Source: Prochlorococcus marinus str. NATL2A | Lineage (GTDB): Bacteria; Cyanobacteriota; Cyanobacteriia; PCC-6307; Cyanobiaceae | Assembly: GCF_000012465.1 (NCBI RefSeq) | Contig: NC_007335.2 | Span: forward strand, 960,001 to 992,000 | Reading direction: 5' to 3' | DNA length: 32,000 bases | Part shown: positions 2,584 through 29,270 of the stretch, piece by piece | Numbering within the stretch: position 1 is the first letter of the stretch | Layout of the letters: the number at the start of each line of letters is the position of its first letter | Translations under genes and position numbers: made by a program | Notes under the pieces: model-generated | The model's input: only the letters and a program-made list of their open reading frames with translations | What the model was told of the DNA's origin: nothing | Database searches by the model: none

Positions 2584-3241
2584 TTAAGTAATTATTCCTA
2601 CACGGCTGACAGTGGTTTGTTCTTATATTTTTTGAACTTCTCAGGACAACCTTCTTTTTATACTGAGCTTTAGAAGGTTGTTTCTTTGAATAAAAAACGT
2701 CAGTGCTCCTCCCCAGAAGCCAATCAATAGATGACCAATTCCATTGATTGCCTGACGTACACTTATCCTAGATTTTCCTTTTCATCAATAGTTCTGTAGG
2801 ACCGTACGTCTTAAGTAGGGAAACCGTAAAAAGAATAATCTCTTTTAACTAGACATTTAAAAAGGGCCCGAGGGGGCCCTTTTTCTTTACCGATTCTTTG
2901 GAAGCTTCTGGATATTGGTGGCCTGGGGCCAAGTGTCTAGTAGAAAGGCTTTTTTACTCCGTTAGGGCACCTAAACGATGCAGAGGAGCTTCGACTGAAT
3001 TGACGCACCTAAATCATTGATCCTTGTCGCATCAGACGAATAGCCTACTTATTCATTGAGAATGTTGGAGCAGGAACCAGAATTCAGTTCGCTTCTCTTA
3101 AATACTCAGGTGGAGTGTCGACCATCAATGGTGCCTCTGAGCTCAACAAACGTATCTTTGCTCTATTCGCACCTCAACGCAATCAGCCTTAATGCCCATT
3201 GCATTTCCACTACACCTGATCAAAAATAGTAAGTTTGGGGT
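2584..3241. repeat. direct repeat copy A (~658 bp, non-coding, G+C-enriched)
   Basis: Aligns end to end with 28612-29270 in the same orientation. By manual alignment 2584-2728 is identical, 2729-2849 carries about 15 substitutions plus one 1-nt indel, and 2850-3241 carries 2 substitutions. All six frames are broken by stops. Confidence 0.95.
2859..2884. terminator. bidirectional intrinsic-terminator-like hairpin inside repeat copy A
   Basis: Sequence AAAAAGGGCCCgaggGGGCCCTTTTT: a 6-bp GC stem flanked by an A-run and a T-run, so it reads as a hairpin plus U-tract on either strand. Confidence 0.7.
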
Positions 3242-3273
3242 ATAAGAATTTTATCTCAAATCAAAACATCAAT

Positions 3274-3618
3274 ATGTCGAGAGAACAAACAAGCAAACAA
3301 GATCAAATAAGCAATTTCGGTGAAATAGCTAAAGGATGTAGAACTGATAATCAAAAAATTGAATTTTTCGATTCATCTAAGGAAGCATTTTTCACAGATT
3401 CAATTGAATCAACAAGCTCGGTTAATGAAGATATCCCTAAAGACTTAGACGACGGGTTTTACGTATACGCAAATATGAAAAAACTTAGCGAAACGGAGCT
3501 TGAAGAGTTGAAAAGTCTGCCATGGAAAGAATACCCAGAAAACTTTAAGATATTTTTATTCGATTTTTGCATCTTAAATGGTGATGCATATTCAAAATAC
3601 TTCCCCAATTCAAAGTAG
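3274..3618 (+). CDS. hypothetical acidic protein
   Basis: The track ORF 3235-3618 starts at a TTG that lies inside the repeat end. The first ATG (3274, MSREQTSKQ...) is the more plausible start. No family recognised. Confidence 0.5.
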   Translation: MSREQTSKQDQISNFGEIAKGCRTDNQKIEFFDSSKEAFFTDSIESTSSVNEDIPKDLDDGFYVYANMKKLSETELEELKSLPWKEYPENFKIFLFDFCILNGDAYSKYFPNSK

Positions 3619-3850
3619 TTTTAGTGATTTTCAGAGGTGTCAGCAAAGACAATCCTGAAAAAGCGATCGTTGTAGTTCAAGCTTAAGAGGGTGTCTTAGG
3701 AAAACATATACAAGAGAACATTGAAATATTTGAAAAAAAATGGTGCAGTCATGACTACGGCAGAACTTAGTCTCTGGTCTTGAGGATCCAAATTGCTTAG
3801 GTATAAATAAAGAATCAAATCAAAAGATTAGTCTCAATTAAATCTGAACA

Positions 3851-4120
3851 ATGATTAGAAATCTGTTTTTCTTAATTCTCGGAGCATTTAGCGGTCTTTG
3901 GTTTATATGGCCTCAAATCATTACGACCAAAGGTTGGGAATGCACAAAAGATGTTATTGCATCTTCTAATGAAGATTTAACAGATATTGAATCATTAGTT
4001 GAATCATTGCCAAACAGAATCAAATTAGGCTTGGCTGTTTCCCCAAAAACATTGCTAAAGAGAGAGAACCTTACTCGTATCGAGAAGCTTAGAATTGTTG
4101 GAGATGCTTGCTTTAGATAA
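3851..4120 (+). CDS. hypothetical membrane-anchored protein
   Basis: 89-aa ORF with N-terminal helix LFFLILGAFSGLWFIW. The overlapping antisense ORF 3913-4131 looks like a shadow. Confidence 0.55.
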   Translation: MIRNLFFLILGAFSGLWFIWPQIITTKGWECTKDVIASSNEDLTDIESLVESLPNRIKLGLAVSPKTLLKRENLTRIEKLRIVGDACFR

Positions 4121-4174
4121 TTTAAAACCACAAACGAAAATTATCATTATAAATATCAACAAAAAGTTGGCGTC

Positions 4175-4678
4175 TTAACTTATCAAAGCAATCGCTTCTT
4201 TTAATTCGTTCGCATGATTGATCTCATCTTGAGCAATTTCACGTATCCTCTGATCGTTTGGATTAACTGTTAGATACTTTGCATAAGTTTCATACGCATG
4301 CTCTTCAATTTTTATATTGATATCGTATGCATTTGATGGAGAGAGTAAGTAATAAAAAACCATTACCCAGTAATAGAAGAGCACTAAATGCCTAGCAAGA
4401 AATCGATCAACCCAATATCTATTGCCGCTTCGTGATTCCATCTCCTCTAAATGCTCCGTCTCATTGATTGCTTGGTAAAAATGAGCCTTCATAAGCTTGT
4501 TACTTAAAGGAGTCTTTAGGCCAAGCGATTCTTGTAAATGCAAAACTGATAAGAATGCAAAATAAGGTGCTCTAGCGATTACCTCAAGAACCCAAAAACG
4601 TTGAATCGGTCTACCCTCGTAGATCCGATCAAGAATACTTACACTAAAATCTAAAACAAGTGAATTAAAACCTTTCAT
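4175..4678 (-). CDS. ptox: plastoquinol terminal oxidase (PTOX / alternative-oxidase family di-iron protein)
   Basis: 167 aa with the di-iron carboxylate motifs LEVIARAPYF, NETEHLEEME, EEHAYETY and DEINHANEL (ExxH repeats), as in the AOX/PTOX family. Confidence 0.85.
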   Translation of the reverse strand: MKGFNSLVLDFSVSILDRIYEGRPIQRFWVLEVIARAPYFAFLSVLHLQESLGLKTPLSNKLMKAHFYQAINETEHLEEMESRSGNRYWVDRFLARHLVLFYYWVMVFYYLLSPSNAYDINIKIEEHAYETYAKYLTVNPNDQRIREIAQDEINHANELKEAIALIS

Positions 4679-4796
4679 AGTCCCTTAGCTAACTATTTAA
4701 GTATAAATACTTAGCAAAAGAAGTTGAGTAATAACTAATTTATTTAACTATCGATAGCTACTTAAGCTGAATATGGAAGTGGACCAAAGATTAAAT

Positions 4797-4973
4797 CTAT
4801 CTTGCTCGAACAGGCTGGTAAGTAGGAATCATCTTTCCTCCACCGAAATCGTCATCATCATCTGGAAGCGCTCTTGAGATTAGTTCTACCAGAACTAGAG
4901 CAGCCATAGGATAGAAACACCATAAAACAGCTTTCCAGATGGGAAATGAGTCAACTAGCTGAAGCTCAGACAT
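4797..4973 (-). CDS. small single-TM protein with poly-Asp/Gly tail (58 aa), family member 1
   Basis: Hand translation gives MSELQLVDSFPIWKAVLWCFYPMAALVLVELISRALPDDDDDFGGGKMIPTYQPVRAR. The tail motif is shared with 7408-7584 and 29707-29841. Confidence 0.5.
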   Translation of the reverse strand: MSELQLVDSFPIWKAVLWCFYPMAALVLVELISRALPDDDDDFGGGKMIPTYQPVRAR

Positions 4974-5186
4974 GTATCAGAAAATTGTTTGCACAAACCT
5001 AACTGATCTAAAAATATTTAGTGTTACGGTTAGCACGAAGTGAATGTTTATCTAATCGAAACTTGTGTAAAAAAATTACTTCAAGCCGTCTAAGTTTTCC
5101 ACAGCTTCAGAGTCACTAAATAACTCCAAGATCTAAATAAAAAGCAATTCCAATAAAAAAGACCCTAGGTATGGTGTCCTACGGGC

Positions 5187-5203
5187 CTGGGTGATGGGGA
5201 TCT
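5187..5203 (+). repeat. 17-nt motif CTGGGTGATGGGGATCT, copy 1
   Basis: Exact 17-mer found again at 5343-5359. Each copy lies downstream of an AAAAAGACCC start-like motif (about 5156 and about 5275). Confidence 0.8.
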
Positions 5204-5342
5204 TATTTTTAACTGTTTTTCAAGCAAATTGCAACCCCTACCATATCTGGTGTTAGAAAGATTAAAAAAACAGAAAAAAAGACCCATATCTGGAATTATT
5301 AGCTTGCGTAATATGTACACAGCGAGTAGTATTTTCGAATTA

Positions 5343-5359
5343 CTGGGTGATGGGGATCT
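5343..5359 (+). repeat. 17-nt motif CTGGGTGATGGGGATCT, copy 2
   Basis: Exact repeat of 5187-5203, located 14 nt upstream of a terminator hairpin. Confidence 0.8.
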
Positions 5360-5372
5360 CTCAGTATCTACT

Positions 5373-5395
5373 CCCTCAAATTTGAGGGTTTTTTT
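5373..5395 (+). terminator. intrinsic terminator
   Basis: CCCTCAAATTTGAGGG palindrome followed by T7. Confidence 0.65.
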
Positions 5396-5489
5396 ATGCC
5401 ATGAATTTCTGCAGATAATTTCTAAGATGGATTAAGGCAAAATTAGTGAAAAACTGCTCTGATCCTTATTTTTTTCCCAAATCGAGAAG

Positions 5490-5702
5490 ATGGAACAAGT
5501 AACTGATGCAATTGGTAATCCCACAGCACTCTTAGTAGAGAGAATTTTTTGGTTGGGGTTAGGTGCATTTTTAGGACTGGCAATAATTACTTCTTTACTA
5601 AGAGGATTAAAAGAAAGTAAAAACAAAACGACACCAATTTCACCTGATCAATTAGAAAATCTTGCAAAAAAAGCGATCCAACAAAACAGTGATAGCAATT
5701 GA
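5490..5702 (+). CDS. small membrane protein, hypothetical
   Basis: 70-aa ORF with TM helix IFWLGLGAFLGLAIITSLL. The antisense ORF 5432-5626 is judged a shadow. Confidence 0.45.
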   Translation: MEQVTDAIGNPTALLVERIFWLGLGAFLGLAIITSLLRGLKESKNKTTPISPDQLENLAKKAIQQNSDSN

Positions 5703-5992
5703 TATTGGTTATCAGATATTTTTATAGCCACAAACAAATTTACTTATGGTCGTTGGGGCGAGAACCGTACAATCAGCTACCACTGATTAGATGATGAGCA
5801 TATATGCTTAATACATATTCACAAAAACAATGAAATTAGTTCCTTACATATTCATGGCTGTTGCTATCTTCTCAGAAGTTTCAACAATTGCTACGACTCC
5901 TATTATCTAATTGAATCTCATTAATTGAGTATTCAGACCTAACGCGTTCGGGTGAATACCGACGTTAGATTGTATATAACTGATTTGTATTC

Positions 5993-6253
5993 ATGCTCAA
6001 AAAGATATTTAGGGCTGCTAGTTTTTTAGCTTTGTCTGTTTTTTTAACTTCGACAACTATTTTTTCAGGAATTATTCCTGCAGCCGCCGCTCAAATGGGT
6101 TCTGATATGAACGAAGATAACTCTATGGGTATTGTGATCGAAGAGTCTAGTGATGCCTTGGATGGTTCGAAAACTAGTGCTGCCCCAGACCTCGGAGATG
6201 ATCAAGCGTTTCCTTTTATCCCAGGTTTTGGTAAAAATTCCGGAAAAGACTGA
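5993..6253 (+). CDS. small secreted acidic protein with C-terminal FPFxPGxG motif, family member 1
   Basis: Signal-peptide-like N-terminus (FLALSVFLTSTTIFSGIIPAAAA), an acidic middle, and the C-terminus GDDQAFPFIPGFGKNSGKD. Paralogous to 29971-30216. Confidence 0.6.
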   Translation: MLKKIFRAASFLALSVFLTSTTIFSGIIPAAAAQMGSDMNEDNSMGIVIEESSDALDGSKTSAAPDLGDDQAFPFIPGFGKNSGKD

Positions 6254-6354
6254 GTATCCTTCTGTTGAAAGTATTGATTGATAATAAATTACTAATTTTT
6301 TCGAAAGCTATAAAAAATCCACAGATATAAGTGGTAATTAGCTAAACCATTTTC

Positions 6355-6459
6355 ATGGAAAAATGGGAAACAAAAATAATCATTTTTGTTATGTTTGCAG
6401 TGCTTGCAATAGGGTCAATTGCGCCATTGATCAGGATGATCAGTGATCGTATTTCTTAA
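6355..6459 (+). CDS. tiny membrane protein (34 aa), hypothetical
   Basis: Hand translation gives MEKWETKIIIFVMFAVLAIGSIAPLIRMISDRIS, with one TM helix. Confidence 0.25.
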   Translation: MEKWETKIIIFVMFAVLAIGSIAPLIRMISDRIS

Positions 6460-6591
6460 GAATTAATTTGCTTGGACAAGCTGAGATTATTGAGGAACTA
6501 TTCCTAACGTGATTGCTTTTGGCATTTTTTGCTTATTTAAATTTTTATTTTGCAAAAACTGGAAAAAATGGATTAAATGCTCGAATGGAAC

Positions 6592-6620
6592 AAAAAAAAT
6601 CTAGAGAAAAATCTCTAGAT
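6592..6620 (-). terminator. intrinsic terminator of the hli pair
   Basis: On the minus strand: ATCTAGAGA-tttt-TCTCTAGAT, a 9-bp stem followed by a T-run, located 30 nt downstream of the hli stop at 6651. Confidence 0.6.
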
Positions 6621-6650
6621 TTATATGAAGATTGATTTGCCTAAAGCTAT

Positions 6651-6947
6651 TTAAAATATGCCAGGAATAATTTGACCAGTAGTGATATAAGCGCCAAGTA
6701 AAGCAATCATTCCAATCATTGCCCAACGGCCATTGGTCTTTTCTGCTTCCTCAGGGTAGTTGGAATAGTTTTCAACTAATTGAGTTTGTACTTGGGTAGC
6801 AAACATGTTTTGCTTGCCATATTCAGTAATGATCTGGTTAGAAGCAGAACTGTAAGCAGGGATTCCTGTTGGATCAACAGATTGACCTTCTGATTGATTA
6901 TCAGTTGGATCTATTGATTGATCAGAAACTGGATTACTAGAAGTCAT
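6651..6947 (-). CDS. hli: high-light-inducible protein (HLIP, one-helix CAB-like)
   Basis: C-terminus EEAEKTNGRWAMIGMIALLGAYITTGQIIPGIF. I place the start at the internal ATG (MTSSNPV...) because the longer track ORF would overlap the upstream hli. Confidence 0.85.
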   Translation of the reverse strand: MTSSNPVSDQSIDPTDNQSEGQSVDPTGIPAYSSASNQIITEYGKQNMFATQVQTQLVENYSNYPEEAEKTNGRWAMIGMIALLGAYITTGQIIPGIF

Positions 6948-6955
6948 ATAAGAAC

Positions 6956-7201
6956 CTAAAAAATACCTGGAATGATTTGACCTGTTGTTGCGTAAGCACC
7001 GAAAGCAGCAATAAAGCCGATCATTGCCATCCAACCATTAAACTTTTCTGCTTCTGGAGTCACGAGATTAAACTCAAATAATGGCCATGAATGTAAAGGA
7101 AAAGTAAAGGAATGTAAAGGGGGCACCCGTACACAGCAAAAGTTATCAGGGGTATTAGCTGAAGCAATATTTTTTATCCACGGTCTAAATAACAATTCCA
7201 C
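6956..7201 (-). CDS. hli: high-light-inducible protein (HLIP); start codon uncertain
   Basis: C-terminus PEAEKFNGWMAMIGFIAAFGAYATTGQIIPGIF. There is no in-frame ATG between 7201 and the motif, so the N-terminus may be shorter if a non-ATG start is used. Lies 8 nt upstream of the next hli. Confidence 0.75.
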   Translation of the reverse strand: MELLFRPWIKNIASANTPDNFCCVRVPPLHSFTFPLHSWPLFEFNLVTPEAEKFNGWMAMIGFIAAFGAYATTGQIIPGIF

Positions 7202-7228
7202 TAACTTTGTTGAACTTAATTCAACTAG

Positions 7229-7405
7229 ATGGATTTAATACCAGGTGTAGTTCTTTTCTTTGGAGCCATTGGAACTGTGGCTTTACTTGGTTGGGATACT
7301 TTCCAAAATCGTAAGCCAATTACTAAAGCTGAAATGCAGCAGTCTCGTGGAACTAGAGCAGCTAAGCCACAACAAAAGAGAAGAGGATTATTTAACAGAG
7401 GATAA
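7229..7405 (+). CDS. small single-TM protein with basic tail (58 aa)
   Basis: Hand translation gives MDLIPGVVLFFGAIGTVALLGWDTFQNRKPITKAEMQQSRGTRAAKPQQKRRGLFNRG. The stop is 2 nt before the next ATG. More protein-like than the antisense track ORF 7225-7422. Confidence 0.5.
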   Translation: MDLIPGVVLFFGAIGTVALLGWDTFQNRKPITKAEMQQSRGTRAAKPQQKRRGLFNRG

Positions 7406-7407
7406 TT

Positions 7408-7584
7408 ATGGGTGAAATTCAAACATACGCTTCAAACTCAGGAGATTTTAATTTCCTTTTCGTTCTAATCATTGTTGGGACTTATCTTCTTTATGAGGTT
7501 GGAAAGGCAATAATGGACAACAACGATGATGATGACATGGATGGAGGAATGACGATGCGTGTAGCAGATGGAGCACAGGCCTGA
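7408..7584 (+). CDS. small single-TM protein with poly-Asp/Gly tail (58 aa), family member 2
   Basis: Hand translation gives MGEIQTYASNSGDFNFLFVLIIVGTYLLYEVGKAIMDNNDDDDMDGGMTMRVADGAQA. Tail motif as in 4797-4973 and 29707-29841. Confidence 0.5.
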   Translation: MGEIQTYASNSGDFNFLFVLIIVGTYLLYEVGKAIMDNNDDDDMDGGMTMRVADGAQA

Positions 7585-8055
7585 ATTGACTACCAAAATA
7601 ATATGTACTAATTGACAACAAAAATTTGTCGTCTCTAAACAAGTTCAAGGGTGAATTGAATATATAATTAGTCATCTATTTAATTAAAAATTTTGAGCGA
7701 AGAAAATATCAAAAGAAAAATAGATGCTTTATTAAAAGAACTTCAGGAGAAAACAGGAGTTTCGGATGAAGAGATGGACGAATTTAAAAAAATTATGGAA
7801 CTAGCAGATTTTTCTCAAGACCAAGAATAATTTTGGTATAAGTCGGGTTGAATGAAGGTTTAGCGAGATGCGAGTTTTGACCAAATAAGCAGTACCAACA
7901 CGTTAAACAATGCATATCCAATAGCAATTTGAATTTGGTAAAAATAACCAACAATCGAAGAGGATCCCAAAATAATCAAACTAGTAATAAAAATATCTCT
8001 TGAAAAATTCACCTAAAAAAATCAAGCACTATAAATATTCAGATTGAAAATGAAA

Positions 8056-8214
8056 TCATGAAAGTCTTATTTGATTTTCAATCGAATAAGCATTGCTTGT
8101 GCAGGCCTCATTGCCTGTAACTTGAGAAACAGCAATAACGAGAAGGCTTAGAGAACCAACTGCTAAAGAAATTGTTCTAATAGCACTGGCTTTCTTAGAG
8201 ATTTTCTTGCTCAT
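8056..8214 (-). CDS. small secreted/anchored peptide (52 aa), paralog of 25725-25876
   Basis: Translation from the internal ATG gives MSKKISKKASAIRTISLAVGSLSLLVIAVSQVTGNEACTSNAYSIENQIRLS: a basic N-terminus, a hydrophobic core, and an IENQ motif shared with the paralog. A phased CTTAACTT array lies 31 nt upstream. Confidence 0.55.
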   Translation of the reverse strand: MSKKISKKASAIRTISLAVGSLSLLVIAVSQVTGNEACTSNAYSIENQIRLS

Positions 8215-8245
8215 ATAAATAATATAATTATTAAGAATCCTAAGC

Positions 8246-8275
8246 TTCAAGAATGCAAGTTAAGTACAAGTTAAG
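8246..8275 (-). promoter_or_regulatory. candidate Pho box (PhoB site): three 8-mers with 11-bp phasing
   Basis: Minus strand reads CTTAACTT-gta-CTTAACTT-gca-TTCTTGAA. It matches the published cyanobacterial Pho-box form of PyTTAAPyPy(T/A) 8-mers separated by 3-nt linkers. Confidence 0.5.
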
Positions 8276-8337
8276 GAAAAGAAACCAAACCTTAACCTTA
8301 ATGCGTTGGCAAAAATTTACATGAAGAGAGTCTGACG

Positions 8338-8544
8338 TTACCAGTAGCAATAAGTAGCAGTAATGATACTTACAACAGGTTTTGGAAATTTAATTGGGAT
8401 CTCTTCAAAATTTAGGGCAAGCCAATCACGACAAATCTCATTTTCTATTTGTACATTAGAAATTAAATTTTTATTTAATACATCTTCTTTAGAGTTGTCA
8501 ACCAAATTATTTGTCCAAAGGATGAGAGTTAAAATCAATGGCAT
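8338..8544 (-). CDS. hypothetical protein (68 aa)
   Basis: Track ORF with an AGGAG-like motif about 8 nt upstream of the ATG (minus strand TAGGAGATTAATAGA-ATG). Preferred over the overlapping + strand ORF 8363-8560. Confidence 0.4.
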   Translation of the reverse strand: MPLILTLILWTNNLVDNSKEDVLNKNLISNVQIENEICRDWLALNFEEIPIKFPKPVVSIITATYCYW

Positions 8545-8949
8545 TCTATTAATCTCCTAGATGAAAATTACATAATTTTTAATCAAGAAAGATATGATCC
8601 GTTGTTTGACTTCCTTCTAAATAATCTATTGAACTAAAAAGTGCCAAAGAAGTAGTTAGTAAAACAACAAGGCAAAAAGATGTGAAGTATAGGTATAAAT
8701 AGCTTAATGATAATTCACCACTAATTATCACAATAAAAAAAATGATTTAAATCTATGATAATTTAAATTCCCTTATAATTGATTATGAAGGAGTTAAGAT
8801 ATGGTTATAATATTTAAAGAAGTTTAACGCAATATATCTAAGTTAACGTAATTATAATCATATGTTAAACAGTATTTAAGCTTAAATAAACTTTGCCTTT
8901 ATTTGACAAGTTAAATAGATGCTAGGTTTAGGAAAATTTTTATAAGCTG

Positions 8950-9582
8950 ATGACTTCATCTTTTCAGGAATCCCTGTCCGAAGAAAGTCAGTTTTATGTA
9001 GAAATTTTAGAAAATATGTATCATTCAAATCATATTGTTAATATTCCTTCAGGAGAAAAAGTATCACTAAGCAAAAGTTATCTTTGGTTAGTTGTAAGAG
9101 GTGTCATAAAAATACAAACTTTAACTCTAGATGGAGAACTATCAATACTAGGTTTGGTGAGCAGGGATGAGGTCTTTGGCCAGCCATTATCTATATCGAA
9201 TCCATATGAAGCATATGCATTGGGCAACTGTGATCTTTTACCAATTTCATTAATTGAGATCGAACAAAACCCAACCTTATCTATATCCATATTTAATGCT
9301 CTCAGGAAAACTTATCAGCAAACTGAAATGCTTTTGTCAATCAAGGCAATCCGAGGAATGGAAGACAGAATTAAGTCCTTGTTTTTATTTTTAGCAGAGA
9401 GATATGGACGAGATTATAAAGATGGAATTGTCATAGATATTCGCCTTACACATCAGGAAATAGCTAATTTATTAACAACAACTAGAGTTACAGTTACAAG
9501 AATAATGAGTGGTTTGAAAGAATCAAAATTTTTAATCCTAGAAAGAAGCAAATATGTATTAAAGAAGCACTCAACTATATAA
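8950..9582 (+). CDS. ptrA: Crp/Fnr-family transcription regulator, PtrA-like
   Basis: 210 aa with a cNMP-binding-like N-terminal domain and the C-terminal HTH HQEIANLLTTTRVTVTRIMSGLKE. Its position directly upstream of phoBR matches the picocyanobacterial ptrA context. Confidence 0.75.
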   Translation: MTSSFQESLSEESQFYVEILENMYHSNHIVNIPSGEKVSLSKSYLWLVVRGVIKIQTLTLDGELSILGLVSRDEVFGQPLSISNPYEAYALGNCDLLPISLIEIEQNPTLSISIFNALRKTYQQTEMLLSIKAIRGMEDRIKSLFLFLAERYGRDYKDGIVIDIRLTHQEIANLLTTTRVTVTRIMSGLKESKFLILERSKYVLKKHSTI

Positions 9583-9668
9583 GTTTTTTTTAATGATCAG
9601 CTCACTTCATTCAATTTTCTTATAAATCAACTATAATTGATATAATCAAAAATGTTAGCTTAACCTCT

Positions 9669-10406: not shown

Positions 10407-10415
10407 AGGCGAATT

Positions 10416-16773: not shown

Positions 16774-16774
16774 A

Positions 16775-21082: not shown

Positions 21083-21126
21083 TGGCTTTGGAAATTATTG
21101 TATTATGAGAAAATATTTTTACTCTT

Positions 21127-22637: not shown

Positions 22638-22679
22638 TTTAGCTTTTCTGATTTGCTCAAATAAATCAAATAAAACATC

Positions 22680-23118
22680 ATGATTATTCGAATTGTGAGA
22701 TGCTCTAGTGAAATACATAAAAAACACTGTCCTCAGATTCACTGCAACTAGAAGCACTTATTCAAGGTTTTACTGATAGAGGGCTCAAAACAAGACATAT
22801 TTACCAGCTAACACTACAAATGATTTCTTGGCTATCAGGCCAAGTGGTAATCCCATAACCGCAGAGGGTCTTGCAGGAATGTATGACAGTGCCGATTTGG
22901 TTATTGAGCTCTCCGAATAAGTAAAGATTCATCGATTAGAAGCTAATTCTGATTGGGGCTTTGCTGCATTCACCTTGAAAGAAGAATTTAACTACAAAGG
23001 TGAGCGAAATAATGATTTATCTAGTTATTCATTGATTTTTAAGAAAATAGATGGCACTTGGAAAATTTCCTGGATGCAAAGATCACAAGGAACTACAGAC
23101 CTCTCGACTTGGAGTTAA
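22680..23118 (+). pseudogene. decayed SnoaL/DUF4440-like (NTF2-fold) gene
   Basis: Homology-like segments lie in three frames: ATG at 22680; ...LEALIQGFTDRG... from about 22721; ...NDFLAIRPSGNPITAEGLAGMYDSADLVIELSE then an in-frame TAA at 22918-22920; then VKIHRLEANSDWGFAAFTLKEEFNYKGERNNDLSSYSLIFKKIDGTWKISWMQ to the stop at 23118. Confidence 0.45.
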
Positions 23119-23235
23119 CCTATTTCCCAACGCCTGAAAGCGTTAATGTAATTTTTCTCAATTAGGTTAAGAATCAGGTTTAGATTGTTAACCAATTCTT
23201 GAAGACAACAAAGGAAAGATCGTTGTATAAATCAA

Positions 23236-23316
23236 ATACAGAACGGAAGTACTCCTCGCACATCGTTCTGTATCAAAAGAGCATCCACTCAGTAAGCTGG
23301 GCAGGGTGCTTTTTTA
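23236..23316 (+). ncRNA. candidate sRNA with Yfr1-like ACUCCUCGCAC loop
   Basis: TATAAA -10-like box at 23226. An 8-bp stem ACAGAACG/CGTTCTGT (23238-23271) encloses GAAGUACUCCUCGCACAU. It is followed by a terminator hairpin (AGCAUCC A CUCAG uaag CUGGG CA GGGUGCU) plus T5. Confidence 0.45.
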
Positions 23317-23404
23317 ATGTCTTATTTAAAAGTATGCACATGTGACAGTTAAGAGACTCATCTACTGATACTTGAGACATCTAGATTTTTCAAATAGTTT
23401 TAAT

Positions 23405-23499
23405 TTGTGAGGAGTAGAGATCCTCCGCAGTGGAAACAAGGAAACACTTGCGCCTGATCTCACGAATAAACCGCCTTGTTCAGAACGGGCGGTTTTTTT
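23405..23499 (+). ncRNA. yfr2: Yfr2-family (Yfr2-5 / Cyano-1-like) sRNA
   Basis: 5' UGUGAGGAGUAGAGAUCCUCC, tandem GGAAACA-AGGAAACA motifs (23432-23446), and a terminator ACCGCC-ttgttcagaacg-GGCGGT plus T7. Identified from my recollection of the Yfr2 family motifs. Confidence 0.7.
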
Positions 23500-23598
23500 G
23501 TTTTTAATTAGAAAAACTAATGATGTTTCTATAGGCACGTTTGATTCATTCAATATAGTTTTATCTTTTCAATGAGATAGGTATCATGCATAAGTTCT

Positions 23599-23874
23599 AT
23601 GAAAGAACCAAAAAGAGAAGCATTGCCAATAGTTACAGGTTGGTTAGTTGCTCCAACAAGAGATTTCTGTTTGTTCTTTATTCGTGATCCCAAATCATCC
23701 GTAGGTTATCCAAGTGTGCTGAGTCAACTTTGGTATTGCACTATCGAAGGAAGTCCAACAAAGTTAAAAAATACAAGACGAATAGATTTGAATAGTGCAG
23801 AAGAAACTTGGAGAGAGCTAATTAGCAATGGTTGGGAATTAGTTGAAGATCAAATTAATGATGATGCTGCCTAA
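23599..23874 (+). CDS. conserved-looking hypothetical protein (91 aa)
   Basis: Track ORF. Trp-containing pattern GWLVAP...LWYC...ETWRELISNGWELVE resembles small picocyanobacterial DUFs. The family is not firmly recognised. Confidence 0.5.
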   Translation: MKEPKREALPIVTGWLVAPTRDFCLFFIRDPKSSVGYPSVLSQLWYCTIEGSPTKLKNTRRIDLNSAEETWRELISNGWELVEDQINDDAA

Positions 23875-24241
23875 ATATGATTGGCGACTCTTAATACAAA
23901 CGCCTAACATATTGCGACCTAATATCTAATTATTAGCTAGTAAAAACAAGCAAAGAGAGCCGGACTTCCCGTAGTAACGACTCTTCCTTGCTTGGCTTGG
24001 TGACCACTGCTTAGATTGGTACCTTGCATTTTGATTATGGGTAAGGAAGATTAATTAATGGATAATCAATACTTAATTCATAGTTAAGCTAGCGTAATAC
24101 TGGGTTTGTACGGATAATAGAAAGTGGTTTTATTGAGAATCTTTTAATGGCAATAAAGAGCAGTTTGATTTTGTTTGACGCAATTTAAAAAAAATTTAAT
24201 TAGAGTATTAATATATTAGAAGGTAAAAATTCTTTATCTGC

Positions 24242-24763
24242 ATGGAATCTAAGAAATTATTTTCTAGGAAGAATTTACTCAATTCTCTTGCTTTCTCTGG
24301 TGTTCTTTTCGTAAATACATTGAACCCTCAAGGGATTAGTGCTGAAAGTCAAAAAAGCATAGATATTCCTAAAGTTGTTTCTTACAGATCAGCATCATGC
24401 GGTTGTTGCAAGAAATGGGTTAACCATCTACGCGATAATGGATTAGAAGTTGTTGATAACGTTATTGAAGATGTCTCAGCAATAAAGAAACAATATAAAA
24501 TTCCCAATAATTTAAGATCATGCCACTCTGCTCAAATAGGTGAGTACACGATTGAAGGACATGTGCCGATTGAATCAATCAAAAAACTTTTCAAAGAGAA
24601 ACCAAGTATCTCTGGGATAGCTGTTCCTGGTATGCCTCATGGTTCTCCTGGAATGGAATTACATTCACACGAATCACATTCTCACGATAATTATGAAAGT
24701 TATAAAGTAGTTTCATTTAGTAATAGTGGTAAAACAAAAATATTCGACAAAATTTCTCCCTAA
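24242..24763 (+). CDS. DUF411 (CopG-like) periplasmic metal-binding protein
   Basis: Signal peptide followed by SCGCCKKW...SCHSAQIGEYTIEGHVP...GIAVPGMPHGSPGME, the DUF411 signature. The C-terminus is His-rich (HSHESHSHD). Confidence 0.8.
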   Translation: MESKKLFSRKNLLNSLAFSGVLFVNTLNPQGISAESQKSIDIPKVVSYRSASCGCCKKWVNHLRDNGLEVVDNVIEDVSAIKKQYKIPNNLRSCHSAQIGEYTIEGHVPIESIKKLFKEKPSISGIAVPGMPHGSPGMELHSHESHSHDNYESYKVVSFSNSGKTKIFDKISP

Positions 24764-24777
24764 GACAAGTACTAATT

Positions 24778-25011
24778 ATGTTAATAATGAGTTTTGTTCT
24801 TAGGAAGTTAAAAATTCTCACTTTTTTCTTTTTCTTAACTCTTCCTTTCAATCTTTATTCTCAAGCTCATATGAAGGGTACATTTTATTCTGAGCAAGAA
24901 GCTGAAAAAGAATCATTTGAACTTGGTTGCATTGGAATACATAAAAATCAAGATAAATGGCTTCCATGTAAAAACGAAAAAGAGCTACATAAGAAACTTC
25001 GAGCGAATTAA
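24778..25011 (+). CDS. small secreted protein, DUF3721-like
   Basis: Signal peptide followed by FYSEQEAEKESFELGCIGIHKNQDKWLPCKNEKEL, which resembles the GC-x-G-x-H...W-x-PC motif of DUF3721. Lies 14 nt after the DUF411 gene. Confidence 0.5.
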   Translation: MLIMSFVLRKLKILTFFFFLTLPFNLYSQAHMKGTFYSEQEAEKESFELGCIGIHKNQDKWLPCKNEKELHKKLRAN

Positions 25012-25013
25012 TA

Positions 25014-25280
25014 ATGAAAAAACTATATTCAAGTCGGAAATGGCATAGAAGACTTGCAGTAATTCTTGCGGTTCCATTATTTTTAACTATTTCAAGTGGT
25101 TCTCTGTACCCCATTTTATTAGCTTTTGGTATAGATGCTTTTTGGTTGATCAAATTACATACCGGTAATTTTGGATTTATAAATTTGCAGTCTATTTATT
25201 CACCATTAACAGGACTGTCAACTTTGGTACTTCTTTGCACTGGAATCTCTTTATTGAAAAGACCTTCGAAAACAAACTAA
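25014..25280 (+). CDS. small membrane protein, PepSY-associated-TM-like
   Basis: RKWHRRLAVILAVPLFLTISSG followed by a second TM helix. Starts 2 nt after the previous stop, which suggests an operon. Confidence 0.5.
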   Translation: MKKLYSSRKWHRRLAVILAVPLFLTISSGSLYPILLAFGIDAFWLIKLHTGNFGFINLQSIYSPLTGLSTLVLLCTGISLLKRPSKTN

Positions 25281-25358
25281 AAAATTGTTAGCACAGCACA
25301 AAGCTATGCCCAAGCGCATGTAAAGGAGGTCACATTTAGTTTTGAAAAATTCTTGATA

Positions 25359-25685
25359 ATGTCTATGGAGAACCAACAAGTTCTACGCTTTCGAATCACT
25401 AATACTATGGATGACACAACCAATAGGTGGATTTCTATAAAAGAAAACCCATTGCAAAGCGCTCAATCAAAACGCTACCAAAAACAATTACCAACTGAGA
25501 AGTGGACACCCACTGATGATCACGCGATTGACATCATTAGTGATTATTTGATTTGTATTAGAGAAGATATGAACGCAATGATTGAAGAGCTTGGTTGTGA
25601 TACAGAGTATGCCGCAGGTTTGCTAAGAGCTATCGCTGATGGATATGAAGACCTCAATTCAAATTCCGAGGACTATTCCAAATAA
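25359..25685 (+). CDS. hypothetical acidic protein
   Basis: The track ORF starts at TTG 25353. The first ATG is at 25359. No family recognised. Confidence 0.45.
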   Translation: MSMENQQVLRFRITNTMDDTTNRWISIKENPLQSAQSKRYQKQLPTEKWTPTDDHAIDIISDYLICIREDMNAMIEELGCDTEYAAGLLRAIADGYEDLNSNSEDYSK

Positions 25686-25724
25686 TAGTGAATAAAAAAA
25701 TAGACACCTTAGTTCAAACGTCTA

Positions 25725-25876
25725 TCAATCATGCAATTGATTTTCTATTTCTAAGTTTATAGATGTAGGAGAAAAAGCATCAGCAGAGCCAGAGAAAGCT
25801 ATTACAGCTAGGCTAACTGCACCAACAACTGTTGATAATGTTTTCAACTTTTTGGAAACTTTCGCTTTTTTTGACA
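25725..25876 (-). pseudogene. frameshifted paralog of the 8056-8214 small peptide gene
   Basis: ATG-TCA-AAA-AAA-GCG-AAG gives MSKKAK and then hits a stop after 10 codons. The +2 frame continues VSKKLKTLSTVVGAVSLAVIAFSGSADAFSPTSINLEIENQLHD. The span is 152 nt, not a multiple of 3. An in-frame TTG could rescue a 40-aa product. Confidence 0.35.
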
Positions 25877-25911
25877 TGTGCTTGTGAAGTCGAACTTCTT
25901 AAAATTAATCT

Positions 25912-25941
25912 ATTGTTAACTCTAAGATAAGAGAAAGTTAA
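25912..25941 (-). promoter_or_regulatory. candidate Pho box upstream of the frameshifted small-peptide gene
   Basis: Minus strand reads ATTAACTT-tct-CTTATCTT-aga-GTTAACAA with exact 11-bp phasing, 35 nt upstream of the ATG at 25876. Same architecture as 8246-8275. Confidence 0.45.
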
Positions 25942-26091
25942 TAAATGGAAATGAAACCTTAACTTAAGCTAGAAAGAATAGTTTGCATAAAACGATCAGC
26001 AGAAGCTCTTTCTTCAGCTACAAGTTATTGGTATTAAAGTAGGAAACTTTTCTAAGCTTAGGGCTGACTATTCATCTACTTCCTTAAGAAA

Positions 26092-26346
26092 TTAATTCGT
26101 ATCGGCTACATTCTTAAAGAACTCACAATAAACCATTAAATCTGATTCTTTTTCTGTCTTCAGATTGAGTAATTCTATGGTTTTAGCAGTATCAATTCTA
26201 TAGGCATACCAATCAAGACAAGTCTCTCTTTGTTTTTGTGTCGATGAAATGGGCTTTGCTTTATATGTACCTACTTCTGTTGAAGTCTTTGTACAAGCAC
26301 TTATCAAAACAATAAATAAGATTAATAAAAATAAACGGGTCATCAA
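26092..26346 (-). CDS. small lipoprotein, hypothetical
   Basis: Signal peptide with lipobox VLISAC (MMTRLFLLILFIVLISACTK). Confidence 0.6.
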   Translation of the reverse strand: MMTRLFLLILFIVLISACTKTSTEVGTYKAKPISSTQKQRETCLDWYAYRIDTAKTIELLNLKTEKESDLMVYCEFFKNVADTN

Positions 26347-26999
26347 TATTTAATCAGCCATCCATCAGAACATAGCACTCGTTTCATTAGCTTCAGGTAT
26401 TAAAGATTACACAGGTTATTGAGATATTCTGATAAGTTAAAAATGGCTGGTGATTTGCGTGAACAGATTACCAGCTTGTAGCCTTACTACTTGCAATAGC
26501 TAAAAGTGGATAGGTGATTTCGACTACACGAAAAAATCTGAAAAAATGCTAGAAAATAACATAATTAAATTCTTATAATGAAACCACTTGCAGACAGTAA
26601 TCATCTTCAACAAGTATTAGCTCAGATTCAATTAAACATAATCAGAACTAAAGATCAAAAGATGTCTGATCATCTCTGGTATCAGAAATCAATGTGTGAT
26701 GGAGAAAAATAAAAAATTAATGAAGAAATTAAAAACAATATTTCCTTTTATCTCTGCTATTGGAGTTTTCTTTTTGGCTAGTAATTCACCTATGTGGAAA
26801 CAAATGGTCGAAAATGAAATCAAATCTATCCCTGTAAAAGAATTTAAATAAAGATAGATTTTTAATTTAGAAATTTACGAGAGACCCAAGAAAGCGAGGA
26901 ATTTATCTAGCGACAAGCTAAATAGTTATAGAACAAGGTTAAAAGCCCTTTATATGAGTCGCTACCGCTTCTATATCCAGTCAATTCAGATAAATCTTT

Positions 27000-27353
27000 T
27001 CATGTTTTTGCTCCAATAATTATTTTTCCGTTAATTTCCCATGAAGGAAATCCTTCTATTTTTTTATCAATGCATAATTGTGTTTGGCTATTTTTACCAT
27101 CACGAGCGCATTCAACAACATTAAGTTCTTCATAAGCTTGTTTTCCAAATAACTCGCTTTGATAAAGGCAGTTTGGACACCAATAAGCTGAATACTTTAC
27201 TACCCCTTGTTCAGTTAAGTGCTTTGCTAGATCAATTGATTGTTTTGTACTTTCAGTAGTAATTATGAGCTCTTTTTTGGTTCCAAGATGTCCACTAGTT
27301 ACAACACTAGGTAATAATAGTAAGCCTATTAAAGGCAATAAAAGTCTTTTCAA
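27000..27353 (-). CDS. secreted thioredoxin-fold protein (CxxC), similar to the Trx-like domain fused to cyanobacterial VKOR
   Basis: YSAYWCPNCLYQSELFGKQAYEELNVVECARDG...GFPSWEINGK. The ORF has no ATG. The TTG at 27353 gives the signal peptide (M)KRLLLPLIGLLLLPSVVTSG. The track start is another TTG at 27392. Confidence 0.65.
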   Translation of the reverse strand: MKRLLLPLIGLLLLPSVVTSGHLGTKKELIITTESTKQSIDLAKHLTEQGVVKYSAYWCPNCLYQSELFGKQAYEELNVVECARDGKNSQTQLCIDKKIEGFPSWEINGKIIIGAKT

Positions 27354-27487
27354 AAAAAAACCAATTAAATTGTATCTTACATCAACTATCAAATAAAGAC
27401 TGAATTAACTATCTAACAACTTCTGATTAATCTTTTTAATTATGCATTGATCTCAATAGAATTCCTTAAGTCCTCATAAAGTAGTTG

Positions 27488-27655
27488 TTATGAAAAGTAG
27501 AATATCAACAACTCATCAAGACAAAACCCTTCCGTTAACCATTCTCTAAACTCCTGACCTATAGCGCTCTGATCTTTACTATTTAGTTTATTTGATCTTT
27601 CCATTAATAAAGTCATTGATTCAGCTATCATCTCTTCCATATCAGGATAAGTCAT
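27488..27655 (-). CDS. small hypothetical protein (55 aa)
   Basis: Hand translation gives MTYPDMEEMIAESMTLLMERSNKLNSKDQSAIGQEFREWLTEGFCLDELLIFYFS. Confidence 0.3.
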   Translation of the reverse strand: MTYPDMEEMIAESMTLLMERSNKLNSKDQSAIGQEFREWLTEGFCLDELLIFYFS

Positions 27656-28353
27656 TAGCAAACAGAATGAATGATTCTACAAACTTATTAGAATTAAAAA
27701 GGAATCACGTTAATTGTTCTAAGATGAAAATCCTTTTAAGAAGAAGTTAAGAGCTAAAAGCAGTCAAAAGAAATAAAAACTAGTTAATTGTTATTAGGCA
27801 TGTGAAGCTCATCTTCAATATCTTTTTCACGATAAAGGTCTAATGTTGAATTTAATTCTGATAATAAAATAGATATTTTCTCTTTCTTGTATTGATCTTT
27901 AACCTGAGAAAGTTTTTTCATAAAAAATCTCTCTATGTTTAATATTATTTTAGTGGTTAGTACATTAATTTAAATGTCTTTATTAATACATCAGGAAAAT
28001 GATTCTGGTTTAACAAAAAATCTATGTTTCAAGCATCAATCTGACTTTGTTTGAAGCAAGTGAAGCATGTATTAGAATAGATAAGATATTGCGTACAAGA
28101 TTGAAAAAAAATAAGACAAAATTAGCATTTCTAATAATTGCCTTTTTGATTGCTACACCTATCTATATTAGTCAATACACAAGAATATATAATAATTCAA
28201 ATGAAAGGGAAAAATTAACTGTCGATGGAATGTTTTTAGACTGACAAAAGAAATTTTTATAAAGTTCACTTAACTATGGAATTTTAATTAAATCATCCAA
28301 ATCTAGTTTAAAATCATAAAACATGAAATGCGTTAAGAGAAGGAGAGAAAAAG

Positions 28354-28584
28354 ATGAGATGGCCACCGAATGCAGCTTGGACCTCAGCCGTAAAAAGAGA
28401 AGGTTATCGACATTTTGAAGTTAAAAGCTATGGAGGCAAAAAAGATGAACGGTGGGTAGAACTATTTCCAGTTAACAACAACGAAATTCTTATAAAAGTT
28501 CCATGGTCGGAATTAAAAACATATTCAAAGTGGACGAGTGGATGGCTTCAGTTGCCAAAAGATGAAGATTGCGATGGCAACTAA
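28354..28584 (+). CDS. Trp-rich small conserved protein (TIGR02450-like)
   Basis: AAGGAGAG RBS about 8 nt upstream. The pattern W-x-S-x(5)-G-x-RHFEV...VELFPV...VPWSELK...W-x-SGW matches the tryptophan-rich small protein family as I recall it. Confidence 0.6.
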   Translation: MRWPPNAAWTSAVKREGYRHFEVKSYGGKKDERWVELFPVNNNEILIKVPWSELKTYSKWTSGWLQLPKDEDCDGN

Positions 28585-28611
28585 TCTCTAGAGAAAATAA
28601 AAAACAGATAT

Positions 28612-29270
28612 TTAAGTAATTATTCCTACACGGCTGACAGTGGTTTGTTCTTATATTTTTTGAACTTCTCAGGACAACCTTCTTTTTATACTGAGCTTTA
28701 GAAGGTTGTTTCTTTGAATAAAAAACGTCAGTGCTCCTCCCCAGAAGCCAATCAATTGATGACCAATGCAATTGATTGCCTGACGTACACTCATCCTAAA
28801 ATCTCCTTTTCTTTAATAGTTCTGTAGGACCGTACGTCTTAGGCAGGGAAACCGTAGAAAGAATAAAACTCTTTTAATTAGACATTTAAAAAGGGCCCGA
28901 GGGGGCCCTTTTTCTTTACCGATTCTTTGGAAGCTTCTGGATATTGGTGGCCTGGGGCCAAGTGTCTAGTAGAAAGGCTTTTTTACTCCGTTAGGGCACC
29001 TAAACGATGCAGAGGAGGTTCGACTGAATTGACGCACCTAAATCATTGATCCTTGTCGCATCAGACGAATAGCCTACTTATTTATTGAGAATGTTGGAGC
29101 AGGAACCAGAATTCAGTTCGCTTCTCTTAAATACTCAGGTGGAGTGTCGACCATCAATGGTGCCTCTGAGCTCAACAAACGTATCTTTGCTCTATTCGCA
29201 CCTCAACGCAATCAGCCTTAATGCCCATTGCATTTCCACTACACCTGATCAAAAATAGTAAGTTTGGGGT
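28612..29270. repeat. direct repeat copy B (~659 bp)
   Basis: Same orientation as 2584-3241 and offset by 26,028-26,029 nt. Begins 28 nt after the stop of the Trp-rich protein gene. Confidence 0.95.
28888..28913. terminator. bidirectional terminator-like hairpin inside repeat copy B
   Basis: Identical AAAAAGGGCCCgaggGGGCCCTTTTT element to that at 2859-2884. Confidence 0.7.

Follow-up and report, generated by a model that had tools for sequence, protein, structure and literature searches.

The direct repeat bracketing a phosphate and arsenate gene region of Prochlorococcus NATL2A is a pair of yfr103 genes evolving in concert

Introduction

In Prochlorococcus marinus NATL2A, a region that carries PTOX, hli, phosphate and arsenate genes lies between two long, nearly identical direct repeats, which raises the question of what these repeats are and whether they account for the gain and loss of the genes between them. 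The original prediction on this locus treated the repeat as an anonymous recombination substrate and offered it as a simple mechanism for the presence/absence polymorphism of phosphate genes. The window analyzed here is a stretch of 32,000 nucleotides (CP000095 960001–992000; the offset from window to genome coordinates is 960000). The anonymous repeat now becomes a named gene, that of the abundant and functionally enigmatic ncRNA Yfr103, present as two paralogues. We are confident in the overall reading that the repeat is a paralogous yfr103 pair, that the pair is kept alike by gene conversion, and that cargo turnover is internal to it. New with respect to the literature that we found are the fixed positions of yfr103 throughout the LLI (eNATL) clade, flanking PTOX, hli and variable phosphate/arsenate genes, and the concerted evolution of the two copies.

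Results and Discussion

The repeat pair is authentic and lacks mobility genes

MAFFT and blastn align the left (L) and right (R) copies (Table 1) as one unit, with 97.42% identity over 659 columns (16 mismatches and one gap), close to the manual count of about 17 substitutions and a 1-nt indel for near-identical repeats of ~658 bp. A repeat search splits the unit into two direct families, 2584–2838/28612–28866 (95%) and 2837–3136/28866–29165 (99%), with a spacing of 26028/26029. The differences between the copies are clustered, 15 of the 17 lying within 2729–2849 and the remaining two at 2989 and 3054, and L/R similarity is lost sharply at either edge of the unit in NATL2A.

An assembly artefact, with one locus assembled twice, is refuted and retains next to no probability. 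Besides the 17 differences between them, the copies are each set in unique sequence to the left and right; Sanger libraries of 3, 8, and 40 kb were used to finish NATL2A; and other strains with closed genomes also have the pair. Window positions 1–11421, the left copy among them, are matched without difference by an independent NCBI assembly, GCA_047285905.1, and a locus from that contig carries the right copy, 100% identical. In Logan contigs from further read sets, sequence stops either at the first L/R mismatch or 30 nt inside the unit. In practical terms, assemblies break or may mis-join at the unit, and short-read mapping, assembly of LLI genomes and quantification of Yfr103 are affected.

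The earlier observation that the junctions hold no integrase, transposase, tRNA or tmRNA was borne out. ARAGORN reports 0 tRNA or tmRNA genes in the window, no integrase or transposase domain is present in the Pfam-labelled genes of the window and flanks or in the junction ORFs, and no tyrosine recombinase Pfam domain was found in the called genes of the same regions or in the junction ORFs. The longest ORF in the unit has at most 62 codons. With no transposase-type ORF and no terminal inverted repeats in the repeat search, the units are unlike the arms of an IS composite transposon.

Table 1. Coordinates, in window numbering, of the repeat units, their parts and the neighboring genes
Feature	Position	Strand	Description and basis
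Thiamine_BP (MTH1187 family) gene	1128..1421	+	left outer anchor; Pfam
Left copy of repeat unit	2584..3241		658 bp; repeat search, MAFFT, blastn
AT-rich left arm, beyond yfr103 terminator	2584..2856	+	several hairpins; contains patch 2729-2849
yfr103, left paralogue	2857..3221	-	Table S2 antisense contigs; GC-rich, no conserved ORF
Hairpin A5-GGGCCC-GAGG-GGGCCC-T5	2859..2884 (right copy 28888-28913)		terminator-like on both strands; sequence, folding
Candidate -10 box TACTAT of yfr103	3227..3232 (right copy 29256-29261)	-	alignment; inferred
Conserved module: p114, p89, PTOX, p86, two hli genes	3242..8238		collinear, 93-94% identity in short-cargo strains
Variable slot	8239..28128		content from nothing to ~20 kb between strains
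TIGR02450/DUF2389 Trp-rich gene	28354..28584	+	last inside bracket; in every LLI locus reaching there
Right copy of repeat unit	28612..29270		659 bp; repeat search, MAFFT, blastn
yfr103, right paralogue	28886..29250	-	Lott et al. Tables S2, S5
PM-6 family gene	29302..29496	+	right outer anchor; divergent from yfr103

The core of each unit is the yfr103 gene

The core of the unit is the yfr103 ncRNA gene, an identity that is taken, together with its expression, from published tables and coordinates. Hou et al. (2016; PMC5069720) described Yfr103 as a very abundant, multi-copy picocyanobacterial ncRNA of 290–328 nt, with 7 paralogues in Synechococcus CC9605 and homologues in NATL1A and NATL2A. 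In Table S2 of Lott et al. (2020; PMC7368042), ‘yfr103’ is placed at 988876–989276 on the minus strand with 26,040 reads, and plus-strand contigs at 962780–963244 are labelled ‘antisense of yfr103’; the two loci are ~26.03 kb apart and both fall on repeat units. Table S5 of the same study lists a BLAST match of NATL2A 988902–989272 to the 304-nt Yfr103 of MIT9313 (75.3% identity over 227 nt), which corresponds to window positions 28902–29272, in the right unit. The offset between the two numberings was confirmed by yfr2/Cyano-1, found at 983395–983510 in Table S2 and at 23401–23465 in the window by Rfam. Cyano-1 alone gave matches in the Rfam scan of the window, and no model matches the repeat unit.

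The sequence by itself also points to a minus-strand RNA, given that the yfr103 region has a GC content of ~45% compared with ~32% around it, that it contains no conserved ORF, that its core is as conserved as the adjoining coding genes and nearly invariant over 26 copies, and that the GC hairpin keeps its stem while its loop varies (25 copies). This hairpin is absent from the output of a consensus terminator scan. Fold z-scores are modest (−2.3 for the minus strand, −1.5 for the plus strand), and RNAalifold finds 2 compensatory pairs for the plus strand and none for the minus strand; the nearly invariant core leaves an RNA structure unsupported by compensatory changes.

Transcription of yfr103 would likely start from the candidate -10 box near the right end of the unit and stop at the hairpin terminator. 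The box reads TAnnnT in most lineages (TACTAT, TAATAT, TATTAT) and TTCTAT in loci L064, L082, and L096. For the left gene, the terminator defines the 3′ end and the -10-like box suggests the 5′ end, with the published contig reaching ~3244. The predicted length of ~360 nt and the 400 nt of the published contig both exceed 330 nt, compared with 290–330 nt for the family. Relative to the start of transcription, an imperfect palindrome at −29 to −58 is a further feature of the family.

Several plus-strand frames of 55–62 codons are open in all copies, on which basis the unit might be read as encoding a small protein, or as a decayed protein gene, rather than an RNA. We consider this highly improbable, as the frames overlap and escape stop codons only through the low variability of the sequence, such changes as occur are mostly non-synonymous in either frame, the start is TTG, the longest ORF of the unit has no Pfam match, and the published minus-strand transcript is very abundant (PMC7368042).

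The two copies are fixed in position across LLI and evolve in concert

All LLI-clade genomes with sufficient sequence, closed ones included, have the pair, always at the same two sites. Eight LLI genomes each contain two copies of yfr103; the unit was not found outside the LLI clade. The left copy lies ~1.16 kb downstream of the Thiamine_BP gene in LLI genomes, and every LLI locus retrieved has the right copy flanked by the Trp-rich gene and the PM-6 gene. The spacing of the copies ranges from 6.6 to 26 kb. The occurrence of two copies in all LLI lineages sampled, the most divergent included, suggests that the two-copy state predates the divergence of these lineages.

Within a genome, the L and R copies share 97.4–100% identity, compared with 85–98% between genomes. 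Identity is 99.7% at a spacing of 6.6 kb and at 10.2 kb (MIT0916, closed), 99.5% at 11.1 kb (MIT1012, closed), 99.4% at 11.4 kb, and 97.4% at both 24.2 kb and 26.0 kb, the pairs that lie furthest apart being the less similar ones. Two single-cell genomes show 100% at 10.8 kb, a value that may partly be assembler consensus, although closed genomes give the same pattern. In a neighbor-joining tree, L and R copies are intermixed and form no separate clades. In two genomes, R-type sequence has spread through the left copy as far as the start codon of p114, and the end-points of conversion tracts vary between genomes.

The higher identity within than between genomes, together with the intermixing of L and R copies, indicates recombination between the copies, and in this respect the repeats are the recombination substrates that they had been proposed to be. 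Concerted evolution is directly visible in these comparisons, and we infer gene conversion as the homogenizing process: homologous recombination, mostly as non-crossover gene conversion, would keep the copies near-identical within a genome while lineages diverge.

Gene conversion homogenizes direct paralogues such as bacterial rrn operons and duplicated tRNA genes, which are in principle also substrates for deletion and duplication. The yfr103 copies are likewise RNA genes in direct orientation that appear to be homogenized by gene conversion, but they differ in encoding an ncRNA, regulatory or structural, that is clade-restricted and in lying 6.6–26 kb apart, as two copies around a flexible interval. 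They resemble the Yfr103 family of very abundant ncRNAs of ~300 nt (Voigt et al. 2014; PMC5069720; PMC7368042) in their abundant transcript and in having several paralogues per genome, and the coordinates published for NATL2A map to the conserved core in each unit, whereas the seven copies of Synechococcus CC9605 are scattered along the chromosome (PMC5069720). In the Yfr103 literature, we found no account of the NATL2A copies as direct repeats bracketing a phosphate/arsenate region, and nothing on concerted evolution or on the extra 270 nt duplicated alongside the gene.

Cargo turnover takes place between the copies

The cargo genes named in the original prediction agree with their Pfam labels (AOX, Crp, Response_reg+Trans_reg_C, HisKA/HATPase, Phytase-like, PBP_like_2, Chromate_transp, MFS_1, Gp_dh, HTH_5, SBF, and DUF411), and the repeats do bracket a region whose content differs between LLI strains. 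The claim that everything between them is accessory was too broad, as every LLI locus conserves the Trp-rich gene and almost all of them also retain the left 5 kb with PTOX, hli, and other genes; the exceptions in the left module are PTOX, missing in locus L063, and p114, missing in several LLI loci. The variable slot of NATL2A contains ptrA-phoBR, a PhoA-like gene, a porin gene, pstS, chrA, an MFS/arsJ-like gene, gap, arsR, acr3, yfr2, and a DUF411 cluster.

Cargo amounts to ~26 kb in NATL2A and 24.2 kb in a NATL1A-like assembly; a type of ~10–11 kb has pstS-MFS-gap-arsR only, a 5.7-kb type has pstS only, and a 6.6-kb type has no P genes. Both copies of the unit are retained in all five cargo sizes. 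The cargo breakpoints are internal, near 8238 and 28129 rather than at the repeats, and the 10-kb type carries the pstS block and the MFS-gap-arsR block in inverted orientation. Differences in P genes between LLI strains arise between the copies and not through them. The idea of a repeat-driven polymorphism of phosphate genes is thereby corrected, being mostly unsupported in LLI, and a unit found in LLI only cannot account for P-gene polymorphism in other Prochlorococcus lineages. Within the slot, phosphate, arsenate and metal genes would be gained and lost through insertions and deletions inside the bracket and through an inversion, with the repeats uninvolved.

In the Lopez-Perez and Rodriguez-Valera model, replacement-type flexible islands are exchanged through their conserved flanks; they are similar in their clade-wide synteny, variable content and highly conserved sequence on either side that may serve as homology arms. 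In NATL2A and its relatives, in contrast, the arms are homologous to each other and genes are gained and lost one by one rather than by replacement of a whole cassette.

Crossover between the copies is at best rare

A crossover between the direct repeats, by deleting, circularizing or amplifying the bracket, could also have produced P-gene presence/absence. The copies do recombine, and loss or excision of the whole bracket would be mechanistically possible, if at best rare; as the source of the polymorphism, we regard it as unlikely. The predicted joining of the outer flanks by a single unit is seen in two short-read contigs, both open to doubt: Thiamine_BP flank, one unit and PM-6 follow each other in single-cell genome AG-402-B19 (L034, 82-kb contig), and the same order occurs in JGI metagenome contig Ga0068486_1012502 (L096). 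Logan contigs of B19, however, end 61 nt into the unit on the left and begin 31 nt before its right end, and these breaks at both unit borders imply more than one pair of flanks on the unit in that cell. L096 may be chimeric, its left flank being closest to NATL2A-like genomes (92%) and its right flank to other lineages (97%), and a core as invariant as this one can link different populations in a de Bruijn graph. Among the ~25 contigs >1 Mb with PM-6, none lacks the upstream Trp-rich gene, and no empty single-copy site is present among the closed genomes. Among GTDB loci, 13 reach beyond the left copy, and 11 of these have the standard cargo (the exceptions are L034 and the inverted L036); the circle junction that had also been sought is absent from 12 metagenome contigs. 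The five cargo sizes, one of them without P genes and all with both copies, and the confinement of the unit to LLI further oppose a crossover origin.

The geometry observed is exactly that left by a single crossover of the Campbell type, in which a circle with one yfr103 and the cargo enters a chromosomal yfr103, thereby doubling the homologous sequence, and gives rise to an integrase-free mobile island. Such an origin would fit the lack of integrase, tRNA and IS, conservation of the core across LLI would suffice for homology, and an empty site together with a circle would account for the B19 read graph equally well. We nevertheless consider it quite unlikely. Two copies are present in all LLI lineages sampled, including the most divergent (79–86% unit identity), so any Campbell-type integration would have been one ancient event, and the 12 metagenome contigs lack its circle junction as well. 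PM-6 and the unit have neither the Thiamine_BP flank nor the Trp-rich gene as a neighbor in outgroups, and with these differing neighborhoods an ancestral empty site is not seen.

Doubtful, too, is a mobile cassette, again integrase-free, with the yfr103 pair as its homology arms, in which crossover would yield a circle with one yfr103 and the whole PTOX/hli/phosphate/arsenate segment, leave a single-copy site, and be followed by re-entry elsewhere. With yfr103 conservation of at least 90% among LLI cells, homologous recombination might bring such a circle, or linear DNA that ends in yfr103, into the chromosome of another cell. The AG-402-B19 data would fit a cell with both products, an assembled empty site and extra unit flanks in the same reads. 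Tycheposons and tRNA-anchored Prochlorococcus islands (Hackl et al., bioRxiv 10.1101/2020.12.28.424599) are comparable as flexible regions with nutrient-acquisition cargo that includes phosphate genes, but the present locus has no integrase, full or partial tRNA, or short att-like repeats, and its 658-bp repeats contain a functional gene.

Sequence beyond the yfr103 terminator

In the preferred reading of a yfr103 gene pair kept alike by gene conversion, each unit would consist of the ~360-nt minus-strand gene and ~270 nt of less constrained sequence beyond its terminator. This left arm has a fold z-score of −3.8, and a plus-strand transcript contig at 962538–962761, with 1,473 reads, has been reported there (Lott et al., PMC7368042). 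Unit positions 1–243 are missing at the left site in one metagenomic lineage. Past the end of the unit, residual L/R similarity persists in the MAFFT alignment to the downstream ATG.

The repeat is a true two-copy unit

A repeat scan returned two abutting direct repeat families, 2584-2838/28612-28866 and 2837-3136/28866-29165, with offsets of 26028 and 26029 nt. Alignment with 180-nt flanks (MAFFT) reveals a single 658-bp unit, similarity dropping sharply at either end, and blastn puts the left (L) and right (R) copies at 97.42% identity, with 16 mismatched positions and a single gap in 659 columns; the near-identical direct repeat pair of the original prediction is thus real. Fifteen of the 17 differences fall within 2729-2849, and elsewhere only positions 2989 and 3054 differ. 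An assembly artifact was ruled out. A second assembly, GCA_047285905.1, matches the window without a difference at L and at R, the NATL2A genome was finished with 3-, 8-, and 40-kb Sanger libraries, and Logan contigs of other read sets stop exactly 30 nt inside the unit or at the first position where L and R differ, which is how a genuine two-copy repeat shows in a k = 31 graph.

No tRNA or tmRNA lies within the window, and the unit differs from a tRNA-anchored island, a tycheposon, and a composite transposon in every criterion tested for each. Neither the tycheposon preprint nor the papers of Kettler and Steglich mention this repeat. Searches of two 26-27-mers against viral contigs and blastn against phage genomes gave no match, which argues that the unit is not phage-borne. 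Exact NATL2A protein matches are AAZ57933 (PstS), AAZ57948 (PM-6), and PMN2A_0427.

Features of the repeat pair and its surroundings (window positions)
Feature	Position	Strand	Remark
Thiamine_BP gene	1128-1421		left anchor
Left unit (L)	2584-3241		
yfr103, left copy	2857-3221	minus	in GC-rich right part of unit
Hairpin	2859-2884		A5-GGGCCC-GAGG-GGGCCC-T5; perfect 6-bp GC stem, 4-nt loop, T5 tail
TACTAT box	close to right end of unit	minus	TAnnnT kept in most lineages; TTCTAT in three loci
hli paralogue stretches	6652-6749; 6957-7054	minus	98 nt, 71% identity
Variable slot	8239-28128		phosphate/arsenate genes
'yfr10-like' transcript	23243-23323	plus	Lott et al., PMC7368042
Cyano-1/Yfr2-family sRNA	23401-23465	plus	Rfam, 63 bits
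Trp-rich gene	28354-28584		
Right unit (R)	28612-29270		
yfr103, right copy	28886-29250	minus	in GC-rich right part of unit
PM-6 gene	29302-29496		right anchor

The unit carries a yfr103 paralogue

The longest open reading frame of the unit has 62 codons, and there is no ORF conservation pattern pointing to coding; this analysis, together with Pfam on the longest frame, speaks against a protein-coding unit. The right 390 nt have a GC content of ~45% in surroundings of ~32%. This part is nearly invariant in 26 copies from many genomes, includes a 46-nt block with zero changes, and is conserved to the level of the adjacent protein genes, ordinary nearby spacers being far lower. The stem of the hairpin at 2859-2884 is constant and the loop differs among lineages. 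A consensus terminator scan of 2300-3500 reported no site despite this hairpin, and negatives of that scan are therefore unreliable. From these features, the unit was predicted to hold a minus-strand ncRNA of ~360 nt. No credible match in the unit was obtained with Rfam, either at the gathering threshold or at E ≤ 10, and covariation in RNAalifold runs on both strands of 25 copies did not discriminate between the strands.

The published transcriptome identifies this RNA. For NATL2A (CP000095), Lott et al. 2020 (PMC7368042) give in Table S2 a minus-strand 'yfr103' contig at 988876-989276 with 26,040 reads, as well as plus-strand contigs at 962780-963244 and 962538-962761 labeled 'antisense of yfr103', and in Table S5 a BLAST match of the 304-nt Yfr103 to 988902-989272. 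The two published yfr103 loci are 26.03 kb apart, and both coincide with the units when the window is placed at CP000095 960001-992000, an offset that was cross-checked with yfr2/Cyano-1 (983395-983510 in Table S2, PMC7368042) against the Rfam Cyano-1 match in the window. These published data confirm the minus-strand ncRNA prediction. On published annotation and published BLAST, the unit belongs to the Yfr103 family, and the "repeat" is two yfr103 paralogues, each duplicated along with ~270 nt past the terminator. According to Hou et al. 2016 (PMC5069720), Yfr103 measures 290-328 nt and occurs as seven paralogues in Synechococcus CC9605; it exceeds every other ncRNA of MIT9313 in abundance, and NATL1A and NATL2A both have homologues.

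The shorter plus-strand contig (window 2538-2761; 1,473 reads) begins 46 nt ahead of the left unit and spans its hairpin-rich left arm; it was labeled 'antisense of yfr103' although it lies past the terminator (PMC7368042).

The pair is kept throughout the LLI clade

With the Trp-rich gene, PTOX, PM-6, and Thiamine_BP as anchors, about 60 loci of the LLI clade were retrieved; closed genomes, single-cell genomes, and metagenomes all contributed. Wherever the sequence extends far enough, the Thiamine_BP gene is followed downstream by a unit after ~1.16 kb, and another unit separates the Trp-rich gene from PM-6. An invariant 20-mer of the core matched 12 metagenome contigs, 11 with a canonical left or right junction and one a chimera. 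A 42-mer spanning the hairpin had zero matches in genome contigs and is uninformative, as it falls in the variable portion of the unit. The unit is absent from the corresponding places in outgroup loci of Synechococcus, other Prochlorococcus clades, and MIT1223: nhmmer and sensitive blastn found no homologue around the Thiamine_BP gene in Synechococcus and the other Prochlorococcus clades, nor around the Trp-rich gene in MIT1223 and another LL single-cell genome.

In one metagenomic lineage from Tara (L072:9047-9157 and L073:8557-8861), the left copy starts at unit position 244, ~650 nt after the Thiamine_BP gene, so the first 243 nt are dispensable at that site. A metagenome contig (PVBE010156886.1, L066:1-1595) with 386 nt of the unit and PM-6 between unrelated dipeptidase-like and SDR-like genes is almost certainly chimeric and was rejected.

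The two copies evolve in concert

Within genomes, the two copies are 97.4-100% identical (table below), and identity between genomes is 85-98%. In a neighbor-joining tree, copies group by genome, with no separate L and R clades, and the alleles in the variable patch are arranged as a mosaic and recur in different genomes and positions. L and R therefore recombine with each other and evolve in concert. R-type sequence replaces L-type as far as the start codon of p114, a gene of the conserved module between the copies, in two genomes, indicating that the end points of conversion tracts differ. The two least homogenized pairs are also the two furthest apart, at most a hint of distance dependence, as these pairs, NATL2A and the NATL1A-like assembly, are close relatives.

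Identity and spacing of the two copies within single genomes
Genome	L/R identity	Spacing
AG-311-D23	100%	10.8 kb
AG-402-M18	100%	10.8 kb
CACIEK single-cell genome	99.7%	6.6 kb
MIT0916 (closed)	99.7%	10.2 kb
MIT1012 (closed)	99.5%	11.1 kb
AG-402-I21	99.4%	11.4 kb
NATL1A-like assembly	97.4%	24.2 kb
NATL2A	97.4%	26.0 kb

Single-copy junctions are doubtful

The predicted joining of the outer flanks by one repeat copy was seen in two contigs, both from short-read assemblies, in which the Thiamine_BP flank is connected to PM-6 through a single unit. The first (L034) is an 82-kb contig of single-cell genome AG-402-B19. In the independent Logan assembly of its run, SRR7041162, sequence coming from the left ends 61 nt inside the unit and restarts 31 nt before the right end, indicating that in those reads the unit borders more than one pair of flanks; this leaves two possibilities, a mis-join in the published contig or an empty site alongside a second copy. 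The second (L096) is a 9-kb JGI metagenome contig whose left flank is nearest NATL2A-like genomes and whose right flank is nearest other lineages. As an assembly graph can connect different populations through the invariant core, this contig is open to doubt. Among contigs >1 Mb carrying PM-6, none lacks the Trp-rich gene upstream. With both junctions doubtful and no empty site among these contigs, deletion or excision of the bracketed region is possible but unproven and rare.

In single-cell genome AG-363-B05 (QCFD01000021.1, L036:5011-9830), the left flank, together with unit positions 1-56, abuts a block in inverted orientation. This block extends from the spacer beyond a MAPEG gene back across PM-6, a complete inverted unit, and the Trp-rich gene as far as hli and PTOX. 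Either the inversion is real, spanning about 9 kb or more, or the join is an amplification chimera; it was kept out of the evidence.

The cargo varies at internal breakpoints

MIT0916-type genomes are collinear with NATL2A over 3711-8238 and from 28129 on. In the interval, their gene content is limited to pstS and MFS-gap-arsR, both inverted, and they are without ptrA-phoBR, the PhoA-like gene, the porin, chrA, acr3, and the DUF411 cluster. The cargo is reduced further in L063 (5.7 kb), where pstS is the sole P gene, and L101 (6.6 kb) and L036 have no P gene whatever. One LLI genome carries a phosphonate-type insert between DUF1651 and DUF411 (window 24110 to 24127), comprising a phosphonate-binding protein, an ABC ATPase, and two permeases (PhnD/C/E-like) with a MauE-family gene (L014:1793-5833). 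In one single-cell genome (L016:8292-9697), the Trp-rich gene has phoB and a phoR truncated to 152 aa (HisKA only) directly beside it. Both yfr103 copies are kept in every cargo version, and this, together with the internal breakpoints, argues that the repeats are not the breakpoints of the P-gene polymorphism. Of the mechanism originally proposed, recombination between the copies stands, in the form of concerted evolution, but the attribution of P-gene variation to it does not. What is new is the arrangement of the yfr103 pair around a flexible region throughout LLI and the concerted evolution of the pair, a modest extension of a known kind of system rather than a new mechanism.

Several further observations concern the region. 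The pstS and MFS-gap-arsR blocks (window 15776-16966 and 18714-21433) lie in opposite orientation in strains with 10-kb cargo (L009:5461-9449), indicating that the slot underwent inversion besides insertion and deletion. The position of the two-component system in L016 is unlike that in NATL2A. The variable slot also contains the Cyano-1/Yfr2-family sRNA, with the 'yfr10-like' transcript just upstream, and the adjacent hli genes are a tandem paralogue pair. The left outer flank, upstream of the window start, is island-like (L001:1-9000), with two DNA_ligase_aden fragments, several hli-like ORFs, DUF938, DUF4090, and an AbrB-like gene; between strains, this flank is 76-92% identical, compared with 88-98% for the right flank.
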